From Clostridia bacterium (GTDB lineage Bacteria > Bacillota > Clostridia > Caldicoprobacterales > Caldicoprobacteraceae): DNA of 64,000 bases. Made by a program: the position numbers and the translations under genes. Shown one piece after another: positions 154 to 63,356 of this stretch; within the stretch, counting starts at the first letter, position 1, and every line of letters starts with the position of its first letter. The DNA lies in the NCBI GenBank assembly GCA_017577715.2, contig PKRC02000001.1, positions 279 through 64,278 of the forward strand, in the 5' to 3' direction. The notes under the pieces are model-generated. The model searched no databases and had not been told where the DNA came from. It saw only the letters and a list, made by a program, of their open reading frames with translations.

Positions 154-1492
154 TATCTGCAATTACATCGCGATACCACAATGCGCTCTTTTTAGGAGTC
201 CTCTTCAAGGTCTCATAATCTACGTACATGATGCCAAACCGCTTGCTATAGCCATAAGCCCATTCAAAGTTGTCCATGAAAGACCAGACATAGTAGCCTT
301 TGAGGTTTACCCCGTCCTGTATGGCTCTGTGGGCCGCTTCAAAATGGCTTTTCAGATACTCCAACCTGTCCTGATCATCCACCATGCCATCCACTATCTT
401 ATCATCCTTAAACGCAGCGCCGTTTTCGGTTATATAGATATTGGGGGCATTGTAGTCCTTGTGCACCCTCATGAGGAGATCATACAACCCTTGGGGATAG
501 ATTTCCCATCCCATCTCAGTATATTTGCCCTCGGGATGTACATGCTTTACCGAATCATACCCATCTTTTTCTCCCTTTTTAACCACAGCTCTAGTATAGT
601 AATTTATCCCGAGAAAATCGATGGGGTTATCCTTAATGAGCTCCATATCTCCAGGGCGTATCGCGGGCGCACCGTATCTTTCCTGATAAAATGCCAGCAT
701 ATCCTCCGGATATGTACCTTTGAAAACCGGATCCAAAAACCATCTATTTTGAAATCCATCCTGGAACTGCGCTGCTTCCCTATCCTCAGGAGCGTCAGAA
801 GCAGGATAAACGGGCGTTAAATTCAAGGTAATCCCTATCTGGCCACCACGGTCATTGCCCGACTGGCGATAGGCCTGCACCGCCTTGGCATGGGACACCA
901 GCAGATGATGGCTTATCCTCACCGCAAGGGCAAAATCCCTGTAACCGGGTGCATGCTCACCAAAGGCATTGCCCAGAAAAGCCACCACCCAGGGTTCGTT
1001 GTGGGTAATCCACTTCTTTACCCGGTCTCCCAAAACGTTATACATCTTGAAGGCATACTCGGCAAAATAATCAGTTACATCCCTGTTATCCCATCCCCCT
1101 ATATCCTGAAGGGCCTGTGGCAGATCCCAGTGATAGAGAGTAGCAATTGGCTCTATACCAGCCTTCAAAAGCTCATCGACAAGCGAATTGTAAAAGTCCA
1201 AACCTTTCTGGTTTACCTGCCCCTTCCCCTGCGGATAAATTCTGGGCCAAGCTATGGAAAACCTATATCCCTTTAACCCTAACTCCTTCATTAGCTGTAC
1301 GTCTTGCCTATAGCGGTTGTAATGGTCACAGGCCACATCTCCGGTGTCGCCATTTAATACCTTGCCGGGCGTATGGCTAAACCTATCCCATATCGATTCT
1401 CCGCGCCCATCCTGGTTTACCGCCCCTTCCACTTGATAAGAGGCGGTGGCAGCACCCCATATAAAGCCTTCTGGAAAAGTTATCTTTGCCAT
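143..1492 (-). CDS. bglA: GH1 beta-glucosidase
   Basis: FPEGFIWGAATASYQVEG start, THNEP acid/base and ITENG nucleophile motifs, WSFMDNFEWAYG; GGGGGA RBS before ATG 1492. Confidence 0.95.
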   Translation of the reverse strand: MAKITFPEGFIWGAATASYQVEGAVNQDGRGESIWDRFSHTPGKVLNGDTGDVACDHYNRYRQDVQLMKELGLKGYRFSIAWPRIYPQGKGQVNQKGLDFYNSLVDELLKAGIEPIATLYHWDLPQALQDIGGWDNRDVTDYFAEYAFKMYNVLGDRVKKWITHNEPWVVAFLGNAFGEHAPGYRDFALAVRISHHLLVSHAKAVQAYRQSGNDRGGQIGITLNLTPVYPASDAPEDREAAQFQDGFQNRWFLDPVFKGTYPEDMLAFYQERYGAPAIRPGDMELIKDNPIDFLGINYYTRAVVKKGEKDGYDSVKHVHPEGKYTEMGWEIYPQGLYDLLMRVHKDYNAPNIYITENGAAFKDDKIVDGMVDDQDRLEYLKSHFEAAHRAIQDGVNLKGYYVWSFMDNFEWAYGYSKRFGIMYVDYETLKRTPKKSALWYRDVIADNGF

Positions 1493-13820: not shown

Positions 13821-14984
13821 TTAACGCACAACTCCAAACCCTTTTATGATGTCATGATAGGCCTGCAGCCCATAAAGTAGCACTTCTTCATCGAAGTTAA
13901 ATTTACTGCTGTGAAGCGGAGCGGTAAAACCTTTGCTTTCATTCCCGCAGCCAAGAAACATGTAAACGCCGGGTACCCTCTGCTGATAGTAGGAAAAGTC
14001 CTCCGCTATCATCATGGGCTGTATATCCTGAAGCGCACGATGAGGCAAGAATTCTTTAAGCTGACTTACCAGTTTGGGATCGTTATTCACTGCCGGATAG
14101 TACACATCTTCCCTATACTGCGCCTTTACCCCGTGTGAAAGTTCAAGGCCTCTTAGCAAACCCTGTATGTTTTCCTTTATTTGCTCATAAACCCTTTCGT
14201 CAAAGGTGCGCACAATTCCCTCAATGACAGCCTTCCCTGCAATTATGTTCCTTTCCTCTCCCGCCTGAAGTTTTCCAATAGTGAACACTGCTTCTTCATC
14301 CGAAGCAACCCATCTGTGGAAAAGGCCATAAACCAAATTTACAAAATGACACGATGCCAGCAGTGCATCAACGCCTTGGTGGGACATGGCCCCATGAGCG
14401 CTTTTGCCGGTAATTTCCACCGTAAATTCGCAGTTTTGAGCCATCACAGGCCCCTCTTTAAGCCCTATCTTCCCTTGAGGGATATCTGGCAAGAGGTGGA
14501 AGCCAAATACGGCATCCACCTTGGGATCTTCCAGTACCCCTTCTTTGATCATGGGCAGTGCCCCTCCCACCGTCTCCTCAGCGGGTTGAAAGATGAGAAC
14601 GACGTTGCCATTCAGTTCCCCTTTGTGCAAGCCCAGCCACTCAGCAAGCGCCAGCAAAATGGCCATGTGGCCATCATGACCGCAGGCATGCATCTTTCCG
14701 CAGTTTATCGAAGCAAACTCAACGCCAGTCTCTTCCTGAAGCGGAAGAGCATCCATATCGGCCCTGAAAGCCAGGGTCATGCCGCTGCCCTTGCCCTTCA
14801 TGACGGCTTTTATGCCGGTACCAGCTAATATCCTTATTTCATTAAACCCATAATCTTTAAGGCAAGATAAAATGTAATCCCGGGTGGCATATACATCAAA
14901 CCCCAATTCAGGATACATATGTAAATGGCGCCTGTGCTGGATCAGCCTTTCTTTAAACCAATAAACTTCCGCATCTATCTGCAT
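13821..14984 (-). CDS. M20-family amidohydrolase
   Basis: RRHLHMYPELG, FRADMDALP, MHACGHDGH, QPAEE, AEDFSYY, LHSSKF; GGAGG RBS. Confidence 0.9.
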   Translation of the reverse strand: MQIDAEVYWFKERLIQHRRHLHMYPELGFDVYATRDYILSCLKDYGFNEIRILAGTGIKAVMKGKGSGMTLAFRADMDALPLQEETGVEFASINCGKMHACGHDGHMAILLALAEWLGLHKGELNGNVVLIFQPAEETVGGALPMIKEGVLEDPKVDAVFGFHLLPDIPQGKIGLKEGPVMAQNCEFTVEITGKSAHGAMSHQGVDALLASCHFVNLVYGLFHRWVASDEEAVFTIGKLQAGEERNIIAGKAVIEGIVRTFDERVYEQIKENIQGLLRGLELSHGVKAQYREDVYYPAVNNDPKLVSQLKEFLPHRALQDIQPMMIAEDFSYYQQRVPGVYMFLGCGNESKGFTAPLHSSKFNFDEEVLLYGLQAYHDIIKGFGVVR

Positions 14985-15104
14985 TTTGAGTACTCCTCCG
15001 ACGGCCTTCAAATTTAAGACAATCCCTCTCCATCCTTGCGATGAAGAGGGATTGCAAAAAAGTCAGCCTTTGCCTTTTAATAGGGATTGTTTCAATATGG
15101 CCTT

Positions 15105-16283: not shown

Positions 16284-16662
16284 AATAATCTTCCTCCTAT
16301 TCCCAATTTTAGTTAATTAAATATGTGAAACATTATACGCCTATTGATGTGAACATTTAATGAGAAATTTGGCACTCAAGTTATGCCCATTTTCGCGGAT
16401 AACTAAACGCCCTCACATTTTTAAATTTATCCTAGCATATATGTATGGAAAAATCAAGAAGTATGGGAAAGCATTTTGTAAATTCTAGCAACCAAAATTG
16501 CAAAAACTTAAGCCACAACAAAATAGCAGTAGCTTTGCTACTGCTATCATTCCTTTTTATATTTTGTAGTGGAGCCTTGCCGAGCATTTTTGTTTGGGAG
16601 TGTTAACTTAATTTAACAATGAACCATCTTAACTCATCAGGTCTGAAAAACTCAAAAAACGT

Positions 16663-16692
16663 TTGACATCCATGGTCTTAAAATGATATGAT
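16663..16692 (+). promoter_or_regulatory. Sigma-A promoter of the lysine-riboswitch operon
   Basis: TTGACA-N18-TATGAT with extended TG, just upstream of the riboswitch. Confidence 0.7.
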
Positions 16693-16712
16693 TTAAAAAA
16701 ACGAATATATGC

Positions 16713-16896
16713 AAAGCAGTTTAGAGGCGCACCTTTCAAGAGTAAGCAGCTGGAGAATACGGGGTTCGATTAAGGCTGCCCAAAGGGGAAGGTGCCGAAG
16801 GATGTGGTATGTCCCCGTCATCCACCTCCTGGGCCCTGGGTTAAGAGCCCTGGGACTGTCATCATTGGGAACCAATGATGGAGCGCTAACTGCTTT
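16713..16896 (+). ncRNA. Lysine riboswitch (L-box) aptamer
   Basis: P1 aaagcagtt/aactgcttt enclosing AGAGGCGC, AAGAGTA, GCCGAA, GGGACTGTC and GGAGCGCTA conserved blocks; upstream of asd-dapA-dapB. Confidence 0.93.
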
Positions 16897-16956
16897 CGAA
16901 TCGCAAGGGTTTTGCAGGGTTTAACTCATCTGCAAAAAGATTGTAATTGTGATACG

Positions 16957-16988
16957 AAAGCGGCTGGTCATCCATCAGCCGCTTTATT
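16957..16988 (+). terminator. Riboswitch expression-platform terminator
   Basis: aaagcggctg/cagccgcttt hairpin followed by ttatt, between aptamer and asd. Confidence 0.7.
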
Positions 16989-17122
16989 CGTGATTATCTA
17001 TATAAGGCGGAATTTAATGAGGCACCATAACCTGTAACGACATATGATGGATAATGAGGTAAACTCTGCAAGATAAAAGGACAAAAATTATGCATCTCAT
17101 AAAATGTGAGGAGGAGAAAGCC

Positions 17123-18142
17123 ATGCAAAAGTACAACATAGCCATTGTCGGAGCAACCGGCATGGTAGGGCGCAAGTTTTTGGAAGTTTTAGAGGAGAGA
17201 AAGTTTCCCATAGCCAATTGTTATCTATTTGCTTCTGAGCGTTCGGCAGGAACAAAAATAAGGTTTATGGGAGAGGACCACGTAGTACAGCAGCTGACCG
17301 AGACCAGTTTTGACAGCAAAGGCATCGATATAGCGCTGTTTTCAGCCGGTGCAACCGTCAGCAAAAAGTTCGCACCAATAGCCGCGTCTAATGGTGCCGT
17401 GGTCATCGACAACAGCAGCGCCTGGAGAATGGAAGAGGGTGTACCGTTGGTGGTGCCCGAAGTCAACCCACAGGAAATACTCAAGCACAAAGGGATAATC
17501 GCCAACCCCAATTGTTCCACCATCCAGGCTGTGGTGGTGCTCAAGCCGCTGCACGACCGGTACAAAATAAAGAGGATCGTATATTCCACATATCAGGCAG
17601 TGTCGGGTGCGGGCATGGGAGGCTATATGGACCTGCAAAACGGGATACGCGGAGAAAAGACTCTGCAGAAGTTCCCACACCCCATATTTGCCAACTGCAT
17701 CCCCCACATAGACGTATTCCTGGATAATGGCTATACTAAAGAAGAGATGAAGATGATCAATGAGACCAAAAAGATCTTGGGGGATTATAGCTTAAGGATC
17801 ACCGCAACGACTGTACGCGTGCCGGTGTTCTATGGCCATAGCGAGTCCATAAATGTGGAGTTTGAAAAGGACTTTGATTTAAACGAGCTTAAGGAAGTCC
17901 TCGCAAATGCACCTGGCGTTGTAGTGCTCGATGACCCCCAGAATAACATCTATCCAATGCCCATTCACGCAGAAAACAAGGATGAAGTATTCGTGGGGCG
18001 CATAAGAAGGGATGAAAGCGTAAAAAGCGGCGTAAACTTATGGGTGGTAGCGGATAACATAAGAAAGGGTGCGGCTACCAACGCCGTACAAATAGCGCAA
18101 AAGCTTATCGAATACTGGGAAAGCGGTCAACTTGCCCGATAG
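17123..18142 (+). CDS. asd: Aspartate-semialdehyde dehydrogenase
   Basis: IVGATGMVG, VIDNSSAWR, ANPNCST, YQAVSGAG, RVPVFYGHS, DNIRKGAATN. Confidence 0.97.
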   Translation: MQKYNIAIVGATGMVGRKFLEVLEERKFPIANCYLFASERSAGTKIRFMGEDHVVQQLTETSFDSKGIDIALFSAGATVSKKFAPIAASNGAVVIDNSSAWRMEEGVPLVVPEVNPQEILKHKGIIANPNCSTIQAVVVLKPLHDRYKIKRIVYSTYQAVSGAGMGGYMDLQNGIRGEKTLQKFPHPIFANCIPHIDVFLDNGYTKEEMKMINETKKILGDYSLRITATTVRVPVFYGHSESINVEFEKDFDLNELKEVLANAPGVVVLDDPQNNIYPMPIHAENKDEVFVGRIRRDESVKSGVNLWVVADNIRKGAATNAVQIAQKLIEYWESGQLAR

Positions 18143-18187: not shown

Positions 18188-19075
18188 ATGAGCGTATTCA
18201 CCGGGTCGTGCGTTGCCCTGGTTACCCCCTTTACAGATAACGGCATCAACTTTGAATCCTTGGCCAACCTCATAGAGTTTCAAATTAATGGAGGCACCGA
18301 TGCCATACTGGTATGCGGTACTACCGGAGAGCCTCCTACCATGACCAGGGAGGAGAGGTATTCAGTCATAGGCTTTACCGTTGAAAAAGTGGCAAAGAGA
18401 GTTCCGGTCATAGCCGGAACGGGTGGCTACAACACCGCCGCTGTAATCGAGGACTCAAAGGAAGCCGAGCGATTGGGTGCCGATGCGCTGCTCATCGTAA
18501 CCCCCTACTACAACAAGACCACGCAAAAGGGCCTCATACAGCACTATGCAGCCATAGCCGATACCGTCCACATCCCCATCATAATCTACAACGTGCCCAG
18601 CAGAACGGGCCTCAACGTAGCTCCATCTACGTTAAAAGAGCTTTCCAGGATAGACAACATAGTGGGCATAAAGGAAGCCAGCGGCAATATAGCCCAGGTA
18701 ACCGAAATGGCCAGGCTTTGCGGCGACAGGATAGATATATACTCTGGTGATGACAACATAGTGGTCCCCATACTGGCCTTGGGAGGAAAAGGTGTCATAT
18801 CGGTAGTGGCCAACATCGCTCCACGAGATACCCATGAAATGGTGGCAAAATTCCTAAACGGAGATATTGAAGGAAGCAGAAAGCTTCAATTTAAGCTGAA
18901 TCCTTTAATCGAAGCCCTGTTTTTGGAGGTCAACCCCATACCGGTAAAGACGGCTTTGAACCTCATGGGGATGAATGTCGGTAAGCTCAGATTGCCTCTT
19001 ACCGATATGTCGGAGCAAAACTTAGAAATACTCAAAAAGAGAATGCTGGAATACGGCCTTAAGATACAACAATAG
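18188..19075 (+). CDS. dapA: 4-hydroxy-tetrahydrodipicolinate synthase
   Basis: [36 protein letters not shown]. Confidence 0.97.
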
Positions 19076-19263
19076 CTTTAAACTGGCAATTATGCAGCCA
19101 GAACCAAATCATTTACATGAAGTTCCAACGAACGTGCCAACGGTTTACTGTTTTATCGACTGCTGATTGGACTGTGTGTTTAACAATACGAAACGTCGAA
19201 TATTTAAATATTAAAAAATCCCACCTAAAAAAATAACCTTGACTGAAGAAACGGAGTGAAAAC

Positions 19264-20490
19264 ATGCCGACGATAAGAATCATTATTCATGGTTGCAATG
19301 GGAAAATGGGCCAGACGGTTGCATCGGTTGCAGCCGCCCTTCCTGACATACAGGTAGTAGCCGGCGTAGATAAATTCCCCGAAATCAAACAAAATCCCTT
19401 CCCCACTTACGGCTCTTTAAGCCAATGCAATGAACAGGCCGATGTGATTGTAGATTTTTCCAATCCCGCCGCCCTTCCTGACCTGCTGGCCTTTGCAAAA
19501 GAGCGTAAAATAGCCCTAGTCATTGCAACCACCGGCTTTTCACAGGATGATATAAAGCTCATCGAGCAGGCTTCCCGTACAATTCCAATTTTCAGGTCGG
19601 CCAATATGTCTCTAGGAGTAAACGTCATGCTGGAACTGGTACAAAAGGCGGCAGCCGCCCTGGGCAACGAATTCGACATAGAGATCATCGAAAAGCACCA
19701 CAACCAAAAAGTCGATGCGCCTAGCGGTACGGCGTATGTCCTGGCCGACGCTATAAACGAGGTACTGCTCAATTCAAAAGACTATATCTTTGGGAGGCAC
19801 TCCAAAAATCAAAGGCGCTCAAAGTCGGAAATAGGCATACACGCTGTCAGGGGCGGCACCATACCGGGCCAGCATACGGTAGTGTTTGCAGGCAACGACG
19901 AAGTACTGGAGATTACTCACACCGCCTATTCCCGGCAGATATTCGCGCTGGGTGCACTACACGCTTGTAAATACATAACCAAGAAAGCTCCTGGCCTGTA
20001 TGGGATGAAGGATATGCTAAACGAGCAGGCTGCAGTTACAAACATCTATTCCGACAATCAACAAGCTCTAATAACGATAAACAGCATACCCGATAGCACG
20101 ACAGCCATTGCTCAAATACTGGAAAGCATAGCACAGCACAACATAAACATAGATCTAATCAGCCAAACTACACCGGTGAATGGGAAAGTCAACATATCCT
20201 TTACCCTTCCGCGCAAGGACCTTAAAAAGGCCATGGAGGCGATCAATGGCTTAAAGACCTTATTCCCCTCTATAAACCTAAACGCCTACGAGGATATAGT
20301 AAAGCTCTCGGTAGAAGGGTCAGGAATGGCACAACAGCCAGGCATAGCCTCTAAGGTGTTCAGCTTAATGGCTCAGCAAAATATAAGGATCATGGCCATA
20401 ACCACTTCCGAAACCAAAATATCCTATATCATCCACCCATTGGATGAAAGGAAGGCTCTTGAAGCGCTTATGGAAGCGTTTGAGCTGTAA
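19264..20490 (+). CDS. dapB: 4-hydroxy-tetrahydrodipicolinate reductase fused to C-terminal aspartokinase-type tandem ACT domains
   Basis: Residues 1-250: GCNGKMG, ATTG, SANMSLGV, EKHHNQKVDAPSGTA, RGGTIPGQH. Residues about 251-408: NINIDLISQ, KLSVEGSGM..QPGIASKVF, ITTSETKIS. Confidence 0.9.
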   Translation: MPTIRIIIHGCNGKMGQTVASVAAALPDIQVVAGVDKFPEIKQNPFPTYGSLSQCNEQADVIVDFSNPAALPDLLAFAKERKIALVIATTGFSQDDIKLIEQASRTIPIFRSANMSLGVNVMLELVQKAAAALGNEFDIEIIEKHHNQKVDAPSGTAYVLADAINEVLLNSKDYIFGRHSKNQRRSKSEIGIHAVRGGTIPGQHTVVFAGNDEVLEITHTAYSRQIFALGALHACKYITKKAPGLYGMKDMLNEQAAVTNIYSDNQQALITINSIPDSTTAIAQILESIAQHNINIDLISQTTPVNGKVNISFTLPRKDLKKAMEAINGLKTLFPSINLNAYEDIVKLSVEGSGMAQQPGIASKVFSLMAQQNIRIMAITTSETKISYIIHPLDERKALEALMEAFEL

Positions 20491-20500
20491 GGAAATTTTT

Positions 20501-20544
20501 AAAGGCCAATACTCCCTGCCTTGTGGTGGGAAGTATTGGCCTTT
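20501..20544. terminator. Bidirectional terminator between dapB and GH3
   Basis: aaaggccaatact/agtattggccttt long stem between convergent genes. Confidence 0.85.
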
Positions 20545-20548
20545 AACT

Positions 20549-22825
20549 TCATTGCTGGTTAAGCTTTTCATTTAGCTTCTGAATTAACCCATCCAGCATC
20601 TCCTCGGTAAATTTTCCTCCTCCAAAATTCACCAAAGCACGAAGCGGCGTGTATTTCATCATTGCCATTAACATCGCATCCTGATCTTGAGTCGCTGAAA
20701 ACATGGGGCTACCTTGACCTGCTTTGGTTAAAAATTCTTTAAATACAGGAGCCAGCACTGGATCCAAAAGCAACTCCCCTACCAGCGTATTCCTATGCAC
20801 CGGCTTCTTGACAGCAACTGTTGACCTTACGAATATCCTGTCTTTCAACACTATGTCCCTCGATGACTTGCCTATCATGATTTCAAATTCACCGCTCTCC
20901 ACATGCCAGTCCTTTATATCAACGTTATAATACGCAAACGCTCTCTTATCAAGCTCAAACGTGACCACCTTCTCCTCACCGGGCTGAAGTTCCACCTTTT
21001 CGAATCCTTTAAGCTCCTTCTCCGGCCTTATAACAGAGCTCTCAACATCCCTCACATACAGTTGCACAACCTCTTTACCCGCTCTGTCGCCCGTATTCTT
21101 AACCTTCACGCTGACCGTCACCGTCTCGGTATCCAGTATCTCCTTCTTGCTTATATTAAGATCGCTGTACTCAAAGGTGGTGTAACTCAATCCATACCCA
21201 AAGGGGAACAGCGGCTCTATGCCCTTCTTGTCATAATACCTATACCCCACAAATATGCCTTCCCTGTATTCCACCCTGTCCCCTTCTCCAGGGAAGTTCA
21301 AATAAGAGGGATTGTCGCTCAGCTTCTTCGGGAATGTCTCGGCCAGCCTGCCGCTCGGATTGGCATCGCCAAACAATAGGTCTGCAATGGCTCCTCCCAG
21401 CGCCTGCCCTCCTAAGTAAGCCTCAAGCAAGCCCTTTACCTTATCAATCCAGGGCATCTCCACGGGAGAACCGTTGCTCAATACCACCACCACATTGGGC
21501 TGAACCTCCGCCACCCCTTCGATAAGGGCACAGTGGCTCTCAGGCATTCTCATATGCTGCCTGTCATAGCCTTCTGATTCGTAATGTTCAGGAAGCCCCG
21601 CAAATATAACGGCAACGTCGGCATTCATTGCCACCTGCTTTGCTTCTTCCAAAAGGCCTTCATCCACCTCATCCTTATCAAGGCTGTAACCTTTAGCGTA
21701 TAATACGTTGACGCTATTCCCAGCTGATTTTTTAATCTCCTCGTATATATCGTCCAGCTTGGTGGGATTTACATGGGAACTTCCTCCTCCCTGATACCTG
21801 GGCTTCCTCGCAAACTCGCCTATTACCGCAATGGTACCCTGCCTCTTTAACGGGAGTATCTTGTCCTCGTTCTTGAGAAGCACCATGCATTCTCTTGCCA
21901 CTTCCCTGGCCAATTGATGGTGTGCTTCTTTGTCATATGTAGCATTCTCTTTCCTGCCATCCACCGCTTTGAAGATCAGATTCAGTATCCTCTCAACCGC
22001 CCTGTCAAGAACTTCTTCCGAAAGTTTGCCTTCCTTTACCGCCTGCACTATCTGTTGATCTCTGATTCCAAAGCTTGAAGGCATCTCAAGGTCCAATCCT
22101 GCCTCCAAAGCCTTAACCCTCTCGTTGACAGCACCCCAGTCGGATACCACAACACCATCAAAACCCCATTCGTCCCTCAAGATATCGGTAAGCAAATACT
22201 TGTTTTCTGAGGCATATTCCCCATTTACCCTGTTATACGAACACATGACCGTCCAGGGCTTGCCCTTCTTTACGGCGCCTTCAAAGCTGGCCAGGTATAT
22301 CTCCCTCAACGTCCTTTCATCTATTACGGCATCCACGCTCATCCTGCGGTGCTCCTGGTTGTTAGCAGCAAAGTGCTTAAGGGATGTTCCGACCCCCTGG
22401 CTCTGCACCCCCTTTATATGGCTTGCCGCCATCTCGGAAGACAGATATGGGTCCTCCGAAAAATATTCGAAGTTTCTGCCACACAGCGGCGAACGCTTAA
22501 TATTAGCTCCCGGCCCAAGCAAAACCGACACGCCTTCGGCTTGGCATTCCTCACCTATGGCTGCACCCACTTTCTCAACAAGTTCTCGATTCCATGAGCT
22601 TGCCAAACCCACTGCTGTGGGGAAGCAGGTCGCCGGAACGCTGGTCTTAAGCTCAATATGCTCTGCGTTTTGTTTTCTGAGCCCATGGGGCCCATCGCTT
22701 ACCATGATAGATGGAATCCCTAGGCGCTCAACGCCCTTTAGATGCCAAAGGTCTAACCCCGAGCACAAGCTCGCCTTTTCCTCTAAAGTCATCTGCGAAA
22801 TGAGCTTTTTGATATCCCTTTCCAT
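20549..22825 (-). CDS. GH3 beta-glucosidase with C-terminal Fn3-like domain
   Basis: [38 protein letters not shown] nucleophile, [23 protein letters not shown]. Confidence 0.95.
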
Positions 22826-63052: not shown

Positions 63053-63128
63053 TGGTGGGCGCAATAGGACTCGAACCTATGACCCCTTGCTTGTAAGGCA
63101 AGTGCTCTCCCAGCTGAGCTATGCGCCC
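63053..63128 (-). tRNA. tRNA-Val(TAC)
   Basis: GGGCGCATAGCTCAGCTGGGAGAGC...CTTACAA...GGTTCGAGTCC...ACCA cloverleaf. Confidence 0.97.
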
Positions 63129-63160
63129 ATGGCAGTCAATTTTTAACTCCTCTATAATAA

Positions 63161-63237
63161 TGGTGGCGGCGAACGGATTCGAACCGCTGACCCTTCGGGT
63201 ATGAACCGAATGCTCTAGCCAACTGAGCTACGCCGCC
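63161..63237 (-). tRNA. Elongator tRNA-Met(CAT)
   Basis: GGCGGCGTAGCTCAGTTGGCTAGAGC...TTCATAC...GGTTCGAATCC...ACCA; resembles the Bacillus elongator Met tRNA. Confidence 0.92.
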
Positions 63238-63279
63238 ACACTATCAAACAGACCTTTTTCATCTTTATAAAGATAAAAC

Positions 63280-63356
<77 letters not shown>

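Follow-up and report, generated by a model that had tools for sequence, protein, structure and literature searches.

In the textbook view, the synthesis of lysine and diaminopimelate (DAP) is controlled by way of aspartokinase, to which 4-hydroxy-tetrahydrodipicolinate synthase (DapA) is added in Gram-negatives and plants. To our knowledge, the DapA of Gram-positives is insensitive to lysine, and 4-hydroxy-tetrahydrodipicolinate reductase (DapB) is treated as unregulated. In class II aspartokinases the pair of ACT domains associates with a second ACT pair, and effectors are bound at the ACT1/ACT2' interfaces; the canonical beta subunits of these enzymes are identical to the C-terminus of the alpha subunit. 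Here, a dapB gene is described that continues in frame into such an ACT pair (dapB-ACT, positions 19264-20490, + strand). It is located in a stretch of 64,000 nucleotides from a Clostridia bacterium of the Caldicoprobacteraceae (GenBank assembly GCA_017577715.2, contig PKRC02000001.1, positions 279 to 64,278), which was analysed as a whole and is called the window below. What appears to be new is the enzyme that carries the ACT regulatory module, as this module is predicted to have acquired DapB as its catalytic partner.

The closest counterparts of the tail are the beta subunits of class II aspartokinases (2DTJ/3AAW, 2RE1, 3S1T from M. tuberculosis, 2DT9 from T. thermophilus, 5YEI from P. aeruginosa, and 3L76), which display the same two-ACT unit of ~155 residues. 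The equivalents of Q298, T311, the GxGM loop and T380-S381-E382 are kept, and a free-standing form of ~155 aa also occurs, namely in those loci where dapB and the ACT module are split into two genes. Unlike these beta subunits, the module does not arise from an internal start in lysC but is attached to DapB or encoded after it. The remainder of the protein shares both domains and the motifs of canonical DapB (1ARZ from E. coli, 5US6 from V. vulnificus, 1VM6 from T. maritima and 3QY9 from S. aureus), from which it differs by 156 extra C-terminal residues. Parallels can also be drawn to 3-phosphoglycerate dehydrogenase (SerA), with its C-terminal ACT domain, and to acetohydroxyacid synthase (AHAS), with its IlvN/IlvH ACT small subunit, both of which serve end-product feedback. 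As in SerA, the ACT part is found at the C-terminus of a Rossmann-fold oxidoreductase, and as in ilvB-ilvN, the ACT gene of the split loci is located directly downstream of the catalytic gene. This likeness is architectural only, however, as the module is an aspartokinase-type double ACT and scores 21.5 bits against ACT_AHAS_ss, below the cut-off of 27. Finally, the gene order is shared with the lysine-riboswitch asd-dapA-dapB operons already known for the Clostridiales (PMC5584792), where the same riboswitch class and a terminator-type expression platform are found. In that survey dapB is listed as an ordinary gene, and neither an ACT domain nor a following ACT gene is mentioned.

The gene consists of a single uninterrupted open reading frame (ORF) of 408 aa. 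Residues 1-252 (19264..20019, +) form a complete DapB with intact catalytic motifs, comprising the Rossmann domain with GxxGxMG and the substrate domain with E-K-H-H-N-x-K-x-D-A-P-S-G-T-A. The tandem ACT pair, which resembles the class II aspartokinase beta subunit, follows from residue ~253 to 408 (20020..20487, +; ACT1 ~260-332, ACT2 ~338-406). Pfam places DapB_N (PF01113) at 4-115 (102 bits) and DapB_C (PF05173) at 118-252 (161.5 bits), while the C-terminus scores as ACT (274-330) and as ACT_9/ACT_7 (342-406, with ACT_9 at 348-406 and 92 bits). The NCBIfam model TIGR00036 (dapB) matches residues 3-252 with 219.6 bits, above its curated equivalog cut-off of 122. Among 33 fused homologues, G10, G13 and G16 of the dinucleotide-binding loop are invariant, and the same can be observed for the catalytic-motif residues E143, H145, H146, K149, D151, P153, S154, G155, T156 and A157. 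By all these matches the protein is a member of the DapB family, and it is predicted to be a working 4-hydroxy-tetrahydrodipicolinate reductase. The two parts are joined by a tether of ~4 residues that is constant in length, with no indel at the junction in any of the 33 homologues. In the AlphaFold2 (AF2) monomer model (overall pLDDT 89, pTM 0.74), the junction itself is modelled with a pLDDT of 83-94. A Foldseek comparison of this model to DapB structures returns the two-domain DapB fold (E 1e-20 to 1e-26, target-normalised TM 0.84-0.91). The matched DapB chains in the PDB are 215-274 residues long and align to the DapB part alone; no structure that spans the DapB and ACT halves was found in this fold search. 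The preliminary description, made from the letters of the window, had proposed one 408-aa ORF with a complete DapB and an aspartokinase-type ACT pair. The ORF, the Pfam and NCBIfam models and the PDB matches bear this out, and the motifs it quoted (GLYGMKDML, NINIDLISQ, GSGM..QPGIASKVF, TTSETKIS) are all found in the protein.

The fusion is genuine, because metagenome contigs agree on it, RNA contigs cross the junction, and the ratio of nonsynonymous to synonymous substitution (dN/dS) is low in both halves. Contigs from four independent metagenome runs (compost, soil, sludge) cover 19200-20550 with 0-4 substitutions. They contain no indels, no joints and no change near 20010-20030 or at the junction, so the stop that was considered possible at about 20010-20030 is absent from all four runs. 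Compost metatranscriptome contigs likewise cross the DapB/ACT junction unchanged (X27 record 24, covering 19803-20573, X25 record 7 and X26 record 16), although these RNA contigs are of low depth and unstranded, and DNA carry-over is possible. When the window is compared with its three closest relatives (an 88%-identical metagenome-assembled genome, or MAG, Caldicoprobacter algeriensis and C. oshimai), dN/dS amounts to 0.07-0.09 in the DapB part and to 0.045-0.10 in the tail. Purifying selection is thus equally strong on both halves. As its dN/dS is the same as that of the DapB part and its family is deep and diverse, the tail is taken to be functional.

The origin of the tail can be read from its matches. 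About 20 NCBIfam aspartate-kinase models match residues ~249-408 only, with what are their own last ~155 positions. These models, PRK06635-type included, align from positions ~244-245 to 407 and, for want of a kinase domain, score well under their cut-offs. In the PDB, the tail matches the Synechocystis aspartokinase 3L76 (E 1e-34), the Neisseria meningitidis beta subunit 2RE1 (2e-24) and the Corynebacterium glutamicum enzyme (3AAW/2DTJ, 1e-20); the class II beta subunits 2RE1, 2DTJ, 5YEI_D, 3S1T and 2DT9 together span E 1e-15 to 1e-24. Judged from these alignments, the tail has its origin in the regulatory (beta) module of class II (alpha2beta2, LysC-type) aspartokinases. The distance is considerable: identity to LysC-type aspartokinases of ~400 aa ranges from 29 to ~36% among the best 150 hits. 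The protein itself is no aspartokinase, as a PF00696 hit is lacking and the aspartokinase models reach 20-121 bits against cut-offs of 208-832. Nor is it a canonical class II beta subunit, despite the descent of its tail from one, since it is not encoded inside an aspartokinase gene and lacks an internal start.

For the effector site, the positions considered are those at which mutations deregulate feedback in the C. glutamicum aspartokinase (CgAK), taken from a review table and not from contact lists. The mutations are Q298G, I272E, I375P, E382A, S381F and A279T (PMC10464499), and T311I (PMC3695502). CgAK Q298, T311, G351 and G353 correspond to Q301, S312, G352 and G354 of the window protein, and M354, T380, S381 and E382 to M355, T381, S382 and E383. 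In 45 fused tails these residues are nearly always kept: Q301 in 43, S/T312 in 43, G352 in 45, G354 in 44, M355 in 43, T381 in 44, S382 in 45 and E383 in 43, while I376 (CgAK I375) is I/L/V/M in 44/45. I282 and P304 (in I-S-Q-T-x-P) are specific for the family. Judged by these residues, the effector-binding apparatus looks intact, while some other positions of the site are changed (see below).

Among the tail matches, many proteins of 300-360 aa contain two tandem copies, that is four ACT domains (P0245, P0251-P0253, P0262 and P0264-P0266). They carry no kinase or DapB motifs. They could be stand-alone four-ACT proteins in their own right, or else derive as fragments from cyanobacterial-type aspartokinases of ~600 aa.

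The fused architecture is widespread. By sequence the window is that of a Caldicoprobacter relative: its protein shares 84-85% identity with the fusions of C. algeriensis and C. oshimai and clusters, among others, with that of C. faecalis. The best 120 clusters at 90% identity all display the ~406-aa architecture, with identity down to 50%. An exhaustive search with the tail only, against 1.84 billion representatives at 50% identity, yields at least 21 distinct DapB-fusion clusters in the best 150, next to ~54 proteins of at most 200 aa and various aspartokinases. These counts are lower bounds, hence at least 120 fusion clusters at 90% and at least 21 at 50% identity.

A survey of 80 genome loci plus the window shows how the module is distributed. 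True fusions occur in 13 loci (the window, L001-L011 and L014), which belong to the Caldicoprobacterales, the Christensenellales and some unclassified MAGs. In 30-31 other loci a dapB of ~255 aa is directly followed by a separate, tail-homologous ORF of 146-182 aa. These split loci, which the preliminary description had overlooked, stem among others from the Oscillospirales, Monoglobus, Ruminococcus, Acetivibrio mesophilus, Soleaferrea and Zongyangia. The separate ACT ORF starts 12-110 nt past the dapB stop (223 nt in one locus) and possesses its own strong Shine-Dalgarno (SD) sequence and ATG, with an anti-SD pairing of -8.4 to -13.3 kcal/mol. Separate translation accounts for the split loci, and read-through of the dapB stop codon was rejected on that ground. 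The stand-alone ORF is in the frame of dapB in 20 of the 30 split loci (L012, L013, L015-L030, L033 and L043), where ~10 would be expected by chance, and often the two are one stop apart (in L015 at 10753/10757). One state may thus turn into the other when a single stop is gained or lost, but the excess is indicative only, as the loci share ancestry and do not count as independent. The fused forms fall into two neighbouring groups of a DapB tree, while split forms and plain ones (with no ACT gene near dapB) are intermixed. Pairwise distances of the DapB and ACT parts co-vary (Pearson 0.76), the ACT part evolving ~1.5x faster.

Annotation does not reflect this architecture. Fused forms are plainly annotated as '4-hydroxy-tetrahydrodipicolinate reductase'; stand-alone forms are called 'ACT domain-containing protein' in RefSeq, and two of them 'aspartate kinase' in UniRef. 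No curated model in NCBIfam covers the fused or the stand-alone forms. The architecture is not mentioned in the open-access papers that were searched, an absence that is no proof of novelty. The fusion is thus frequent in the databases and silently annotated there, yet it is apparently unstudied. It had been considered beforehand that the fusion might turn out to be common and neutral; it is common, but the dN/dS of its tail (0.045-0.10) shows that it is not neutral.

Two fused genes come from MAGs labelled 'uncultured Spirochaetaceae' (L008, CAYMGP010000031.1) and 'Desulfofustis sp.' (P0076). Either these MAGs are mis-binned, or the gene has been transferred horizontally outside the Clostridia.

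In every locus where the module is found, it goes with dapB: it is part of the dapB ORF in 13 loci and encoded by the following gene in 30-31. When two genes are fused in one clade and adjacent in others, this classically points to physical or functional coupling, here read from gene arrangement. At the junction of the fused genes neither an SD nor an internal start is present, the anti-SD pairing being +0.6 to -5.5 kcal/mol. This pairing is too weak for an internal start that would release a free beta-like protein, and in the fused genes the module therefore exists only as a covalent domain of DapB. Of the two functions put forward in the preliminary description, that of an amino-acid-sensing reductase fits best with this linkage, the purifying selection, the deregulation-site residues, most of which are kept, and the lack of an internal start. 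It is taken further here: the ACT pair may be an effector-sensing regulatory module for DapB, acting in cis or in trans, a reading for which the chances seem evenly balanced. In Caldicoprobacter and the Christensenellales it would act in cis; in many Oscillospirales, Acetivibrio and Monoglobus it would act in trans, as the ~155-aa protein of the next gene.

By analogy to class II aspartokinases, we infer that the tail binds a ligand, that tails pair upon binding, and that this pairing affects DapB activity. Within the DapB tetramer, binding of an end product, most plausibly lysine or meso-DAP, would bring the tails of two protomers together. Because the tail hangs on the nucleotide-binding domain, this pairing would restrain the domain closure that DapB needs for catalysis. 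The logic would be the same as for the ACT domain of SerA, and the split form would be comparable to the AHAS catalytic subunit with IlvN. The location of the operon under a lysine riboswitch points to lysine as the physiological signal for the unit. Together with this riboswitch, which would turn off the transcription of asd-dapA-dapB-ACT, the module could provide fast, branch-specific feedback in organisms whose DapA has no lysine site.

The DapA sequences are relevant here. When aligned to E. coli DapA (identical to PDB 1DHP), the DapA of the window has intact catalytic residues, while the residues of the E. coli lysine site are changed (S48P, A49P, H53R, H56R, N80Y and E84A). At position 56 (E. 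coli numbering) K or R is found in 10 of the 13 fused loci, and His in all 31 split and in 28 of the 35 plain loci. N80 is replaced by Y in four fused loci, whereas the split and plain groups keep both H56 and N80. H56K and E84T abolish the lysine inhibition of DapA (PMC10464499). The putative lysine site of DapA thus appears to differ systematically between fused and non-fused lineages, and the fused ones seem to be left without obvious feedback at the level of DapA, since the residues of this site are lost.

If the ACT pair indeed senses an effector for DapB, DAP/lysine feedback would have been moved to DapB from DapA, whose lysine site is lost in the fused lineages. Regulation of a DapB would then be seen for the first time, the ACT domain would gain a catalytic partner not known before, and a control point would be added to the pathway from which both lysine and meso-DAP, a precursor of peptidoglycan, are made. 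Such control would be relevant to Clostridia of the gut (Christensenellales, Oscillospirales), to cellulolytic ones (Acetivibrio) and to those of compost (Caldicoprobacter). It would bear on metabolic models, strain engineering and DapB as an antibacterial target, and would offer a specific annotation for thousands of entries now named 'DapB', 'ACT domain-containing protein' or 'aspartate kinase'. It would also be a natural case of a regulatory module that moves between enzymes of one pathway, with fused and split forms available for comparison. The conserved pairing with dapB, fused or split, suggests a lead to an unstudied feedback point in the synthesis of lysine and cell-wall precursors. 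The broader statement, that DapB is allosterically shut down by lysine or meso-DAP in a large part of the Clostridia, through an aspartokinase-beta-derived sensor that is fused or a separate subunit, is made more tentatively and falls somewhat short of an even chance.

Several points weigh against such a role. We know of no organism in which DapB is allosterically regulated. About 30 further Clostridia loci contain no ACT gene near dapB; the module is therefore dispensable and its association with dapB patchy. No convincing DapB residues separate the ACT-linked from the plain DapBs: the top Jensen-Shannon divergences (JSD) are 0.26 and 0.20, against a permutation bound of 0.20. As such a separating pattern is lacking, a DapB interface for the split form has no sequence support. 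In the effector site, the equivalents of CgAK D274, A279, S301, T308 and N374 are not kept in the fused tails, where D274 is variable, A279 is replaced by I, S301 by P and N374 by R, A or K. The split tails are less conserved still, with the G353 equivalent kept in 10 of 30. Ligand binding by the tail is accordingly not assured, and the ligand cannot be named from sequence. Lastly, the AF2 model represents a monomer.

Of the other explanations, the one that survives best is that the ACT pair serves, as a beta-type regulatory subunit, the alpha subunit of a class II aspartokinase encoded elsewhere, to which it would be supplied free or carried on DapB. Their pairing would then complete the unit that binds the effector, and DapB might in this way be held close to the enzyme that opens the pathway. 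This would fit the homology of the tail to class II beta subunits, which are free proteins that pair with the ACT domains of alpha (PMC8690038), as well as the UniRef name 'aspartate kinase' of two stand-alone forms, the shared pathway and lysine regulon, and the kept equivalents of feedback-critical CgAK residues. However, the ACT gene never adjoins an aspartokinase gene in any of the ~45 dapB-ACT loci, the 13 fused and 30-31 split loci of the survey all lack one within 10 kb, and no aspartokinase is encoded in the 64-kb window, in the ~10 kb past its end, or in the 10-kb flanks of the 13 fused loci. In three versions of one contig (L085, L086 and L087) a gene for a 449-aa aspartokinase does occur, 4.5 kb upstream of the dapA of a split cluster whose dapB encodes 253 aa and whose ACT-pair gene encodes 156 aa. 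This enzyme, the only co-located aspartokinase found, contains an AA_kinase domain with its own ACT pair and belongs to class I (PRK09034/CaAK-like). Class I aspartokinases dimerise through ACT1:ACT1 and ACT2:ACT2 contacts, for which a beta subunit is not needed (PMC4142519). Full class I-type aspartokinases with an ACT pair are also present in Acetivibrio, a genus with the split arrangement (L042). An ACT-less aspartokinase in need of the module finds no support either, as 120/120 class I aspartokinases retrieved carry ACT domains. The explanation is further opposed by the lack of an internal start in the fused genes and by the identity of at most ~36% between the tail and LysC-type aspartokinases of ~400 aa (best 150 of the 1.84 billion representatives), where canonical beta subunits would be identical to their alpha C-terminus. 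Among class II aspartokinases of ~400 aa, the one nearest to the tail is found in Terrisporobacter/Turicibacter lineages and not in those with dapB-ACT. The scaffold for an aspartokinase encoded elsewhere, offered as second option in the preliminary description, is thereby weakened, and a role as aspartokinase subunit now seems unlikely. The closest class II aspartokinase to the tail (P0305) was also followed as a lead in its own right and dropped, since the genera it leads to (Terrisporobacter, Turicibacter and Acetoanaerobium) are not connected to the dapB-ACT genomes.

Alternatively, the module may sense an effector and act on a partner other than DapB, most plausibly the branch-point enzyme DapA, with DapB anchoring a DapA-DapB complex, or it may control the partition between DAP/lysine and dipicolinate in spore formers. 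Indeed, dapA is located directly upstream of dapB in 79 of the 81 loci, and control of the branch by other means would be useful where DapA has lost its lysine-site residues. Sporulation genes (for a SpoIID/LytB-domain protein) are also found in the window and near L085. Both fusion and gene order, however, link the module to the C-terminus of DapB and not to DapA, and Christensenella, which carries the fusion, is described as non-spore-forming. A target in DapA or dipicolinate synthesis is accordingly considered quite improbable. The same low probability is given to a ligand-independent tail that merely stabilises or assembles DapB after loss of sensing: the non-conserved CgAK positions, the looser split tails, the lack of a co-variation signal in DapB and the dispensability of the module would all agree with it, but the near-invariance of the G352/G354 glycine loop, Q301, T381, S382 and E383 in the fused tails is hard to explain without a binding site, the tail is under strong purifying selection, and in the split loci the module is retained as a protein that is translated on its own.

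The operon in which the proposed sensing module would operate runs from a promoter over a lysine riboswitch, asd, dapA and dapB-ACT, the last gene, to a terminator. The predicted promoter (16663..16692, +) is of the sigma-70 type (TTGACA, 18 nt, TG-TATGAT), with 11/12 consensus matches and an extended -10 TG, and is proposed from this consensus match only. It is followed after 20 nt by the lysine riboswitch aptamer RF00168 (16714..16896, +), which covers the full model (1-182) with 110.2 bits against a gathering threshold of 30. The expression platform (16957..16999, +) comprises a 12-bp GC-rich hairpin (16957-16985) and a U-rich tract. When 16880-17095 is folded, the AAAGCGGCUGGU/AUCAGCCGCUUU hairpin appears in both the minimum free energy and the centroid structures (z = -3.4), and the platform is read as an intrinsic terminator, giving a putative OFF switch. 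Two metatranscriptome contigs (X26 record 9 and X28 record 25, 16600-16929) reach upstream of the predicted promoter. They derive either from read-through from upstream or from DNA in the RNA libraries, which is a caveat on all RNA evidence presented here.

The first gene, asd, encodes aspartate-semialdehyde dehydrogenase (17123..18142, +; Pfam Semialdhyde_dh and Semialdhyde_dhC). Although its ORF begins with ATG 17090, the true start is probably ATG 17123 (MQKYNIAIVGATG...), ahead of which a strong SD (GAGGAGGAG) is located. It is followed by dapA (18188..19075, +; Pfam DHDPS, 318 bits). The spacer between dapA and dapB (19076..19263, +) measures 188 nt and contains the SD GGAG 8 nt before the ATG of dapB. 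No terminator or promoter was found on its + strand in the scan, and it has no significant structure (fold z = 0.01). An RNA contig (X28 record 28, 18618-19466) comprises the end of dapA, the spacer and the start of dapB. The genes for dapB-ACT and GH3 converge, and between them a hairpin (20499..20546) begins 9 nt past the stop codon of dapB-ACT. With -32.6 kcal/mol, z = -5.5 and none of 200 shuffles as stable, it is likely a bidirectional terminator that ends the operon. The riboswitch-asd-dapA-dapB layout is also found in L002, L003, L005 and L014 (fused) and in L015 (split), with the riboswitch ~2.3 kb upstream of dapB. The lysine-riboswitch control claimed beforehand holds in so far as the riboswitch is real (110 bits). 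As it is located upstream of asd, 2.4 kb from dapB-ACT, control of the latter depends on co-transcription, which is supported but not proven. On the strength of the terminator-free spacer, the single RNA contig and the conserved layout, such control is likely.

Other features were noted around these loci. In the window, an M20 amidohydrolase (13821-15011, -) is encoded ~1.7 kb upstream of the riboswitch. It matches TIGR01891 with 328 bits, displays weak similarity to the ArgE/DapE family below every specific equivalog cut-off, and could be an N-acyl-DAP deacylase. Three tRNA genes are clustered near the end of the window (63056-63356, -), and beyond this cluster a related JGI contig (L088) contains a pst phosphate-transport/PhoU/two-component cluster. 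In C. oshimai (L003), a HEARO RNA (RF02033, 161.8 bits) is located at 1039-1261 (-), ~9 kb upstream of dapB-ACT, and marks an IS605-family or HNH-associated element. A T-box leader is present downstream in the Monoglobus locus (L023, 13204-13453, +). Two Caldicoprobacterales-like loci (L004, 12943-13043 and 20770-20869; L005, 12891-12992) have purine riboswitches on the - strand, ~2 kb downstream of dapB-ACT.

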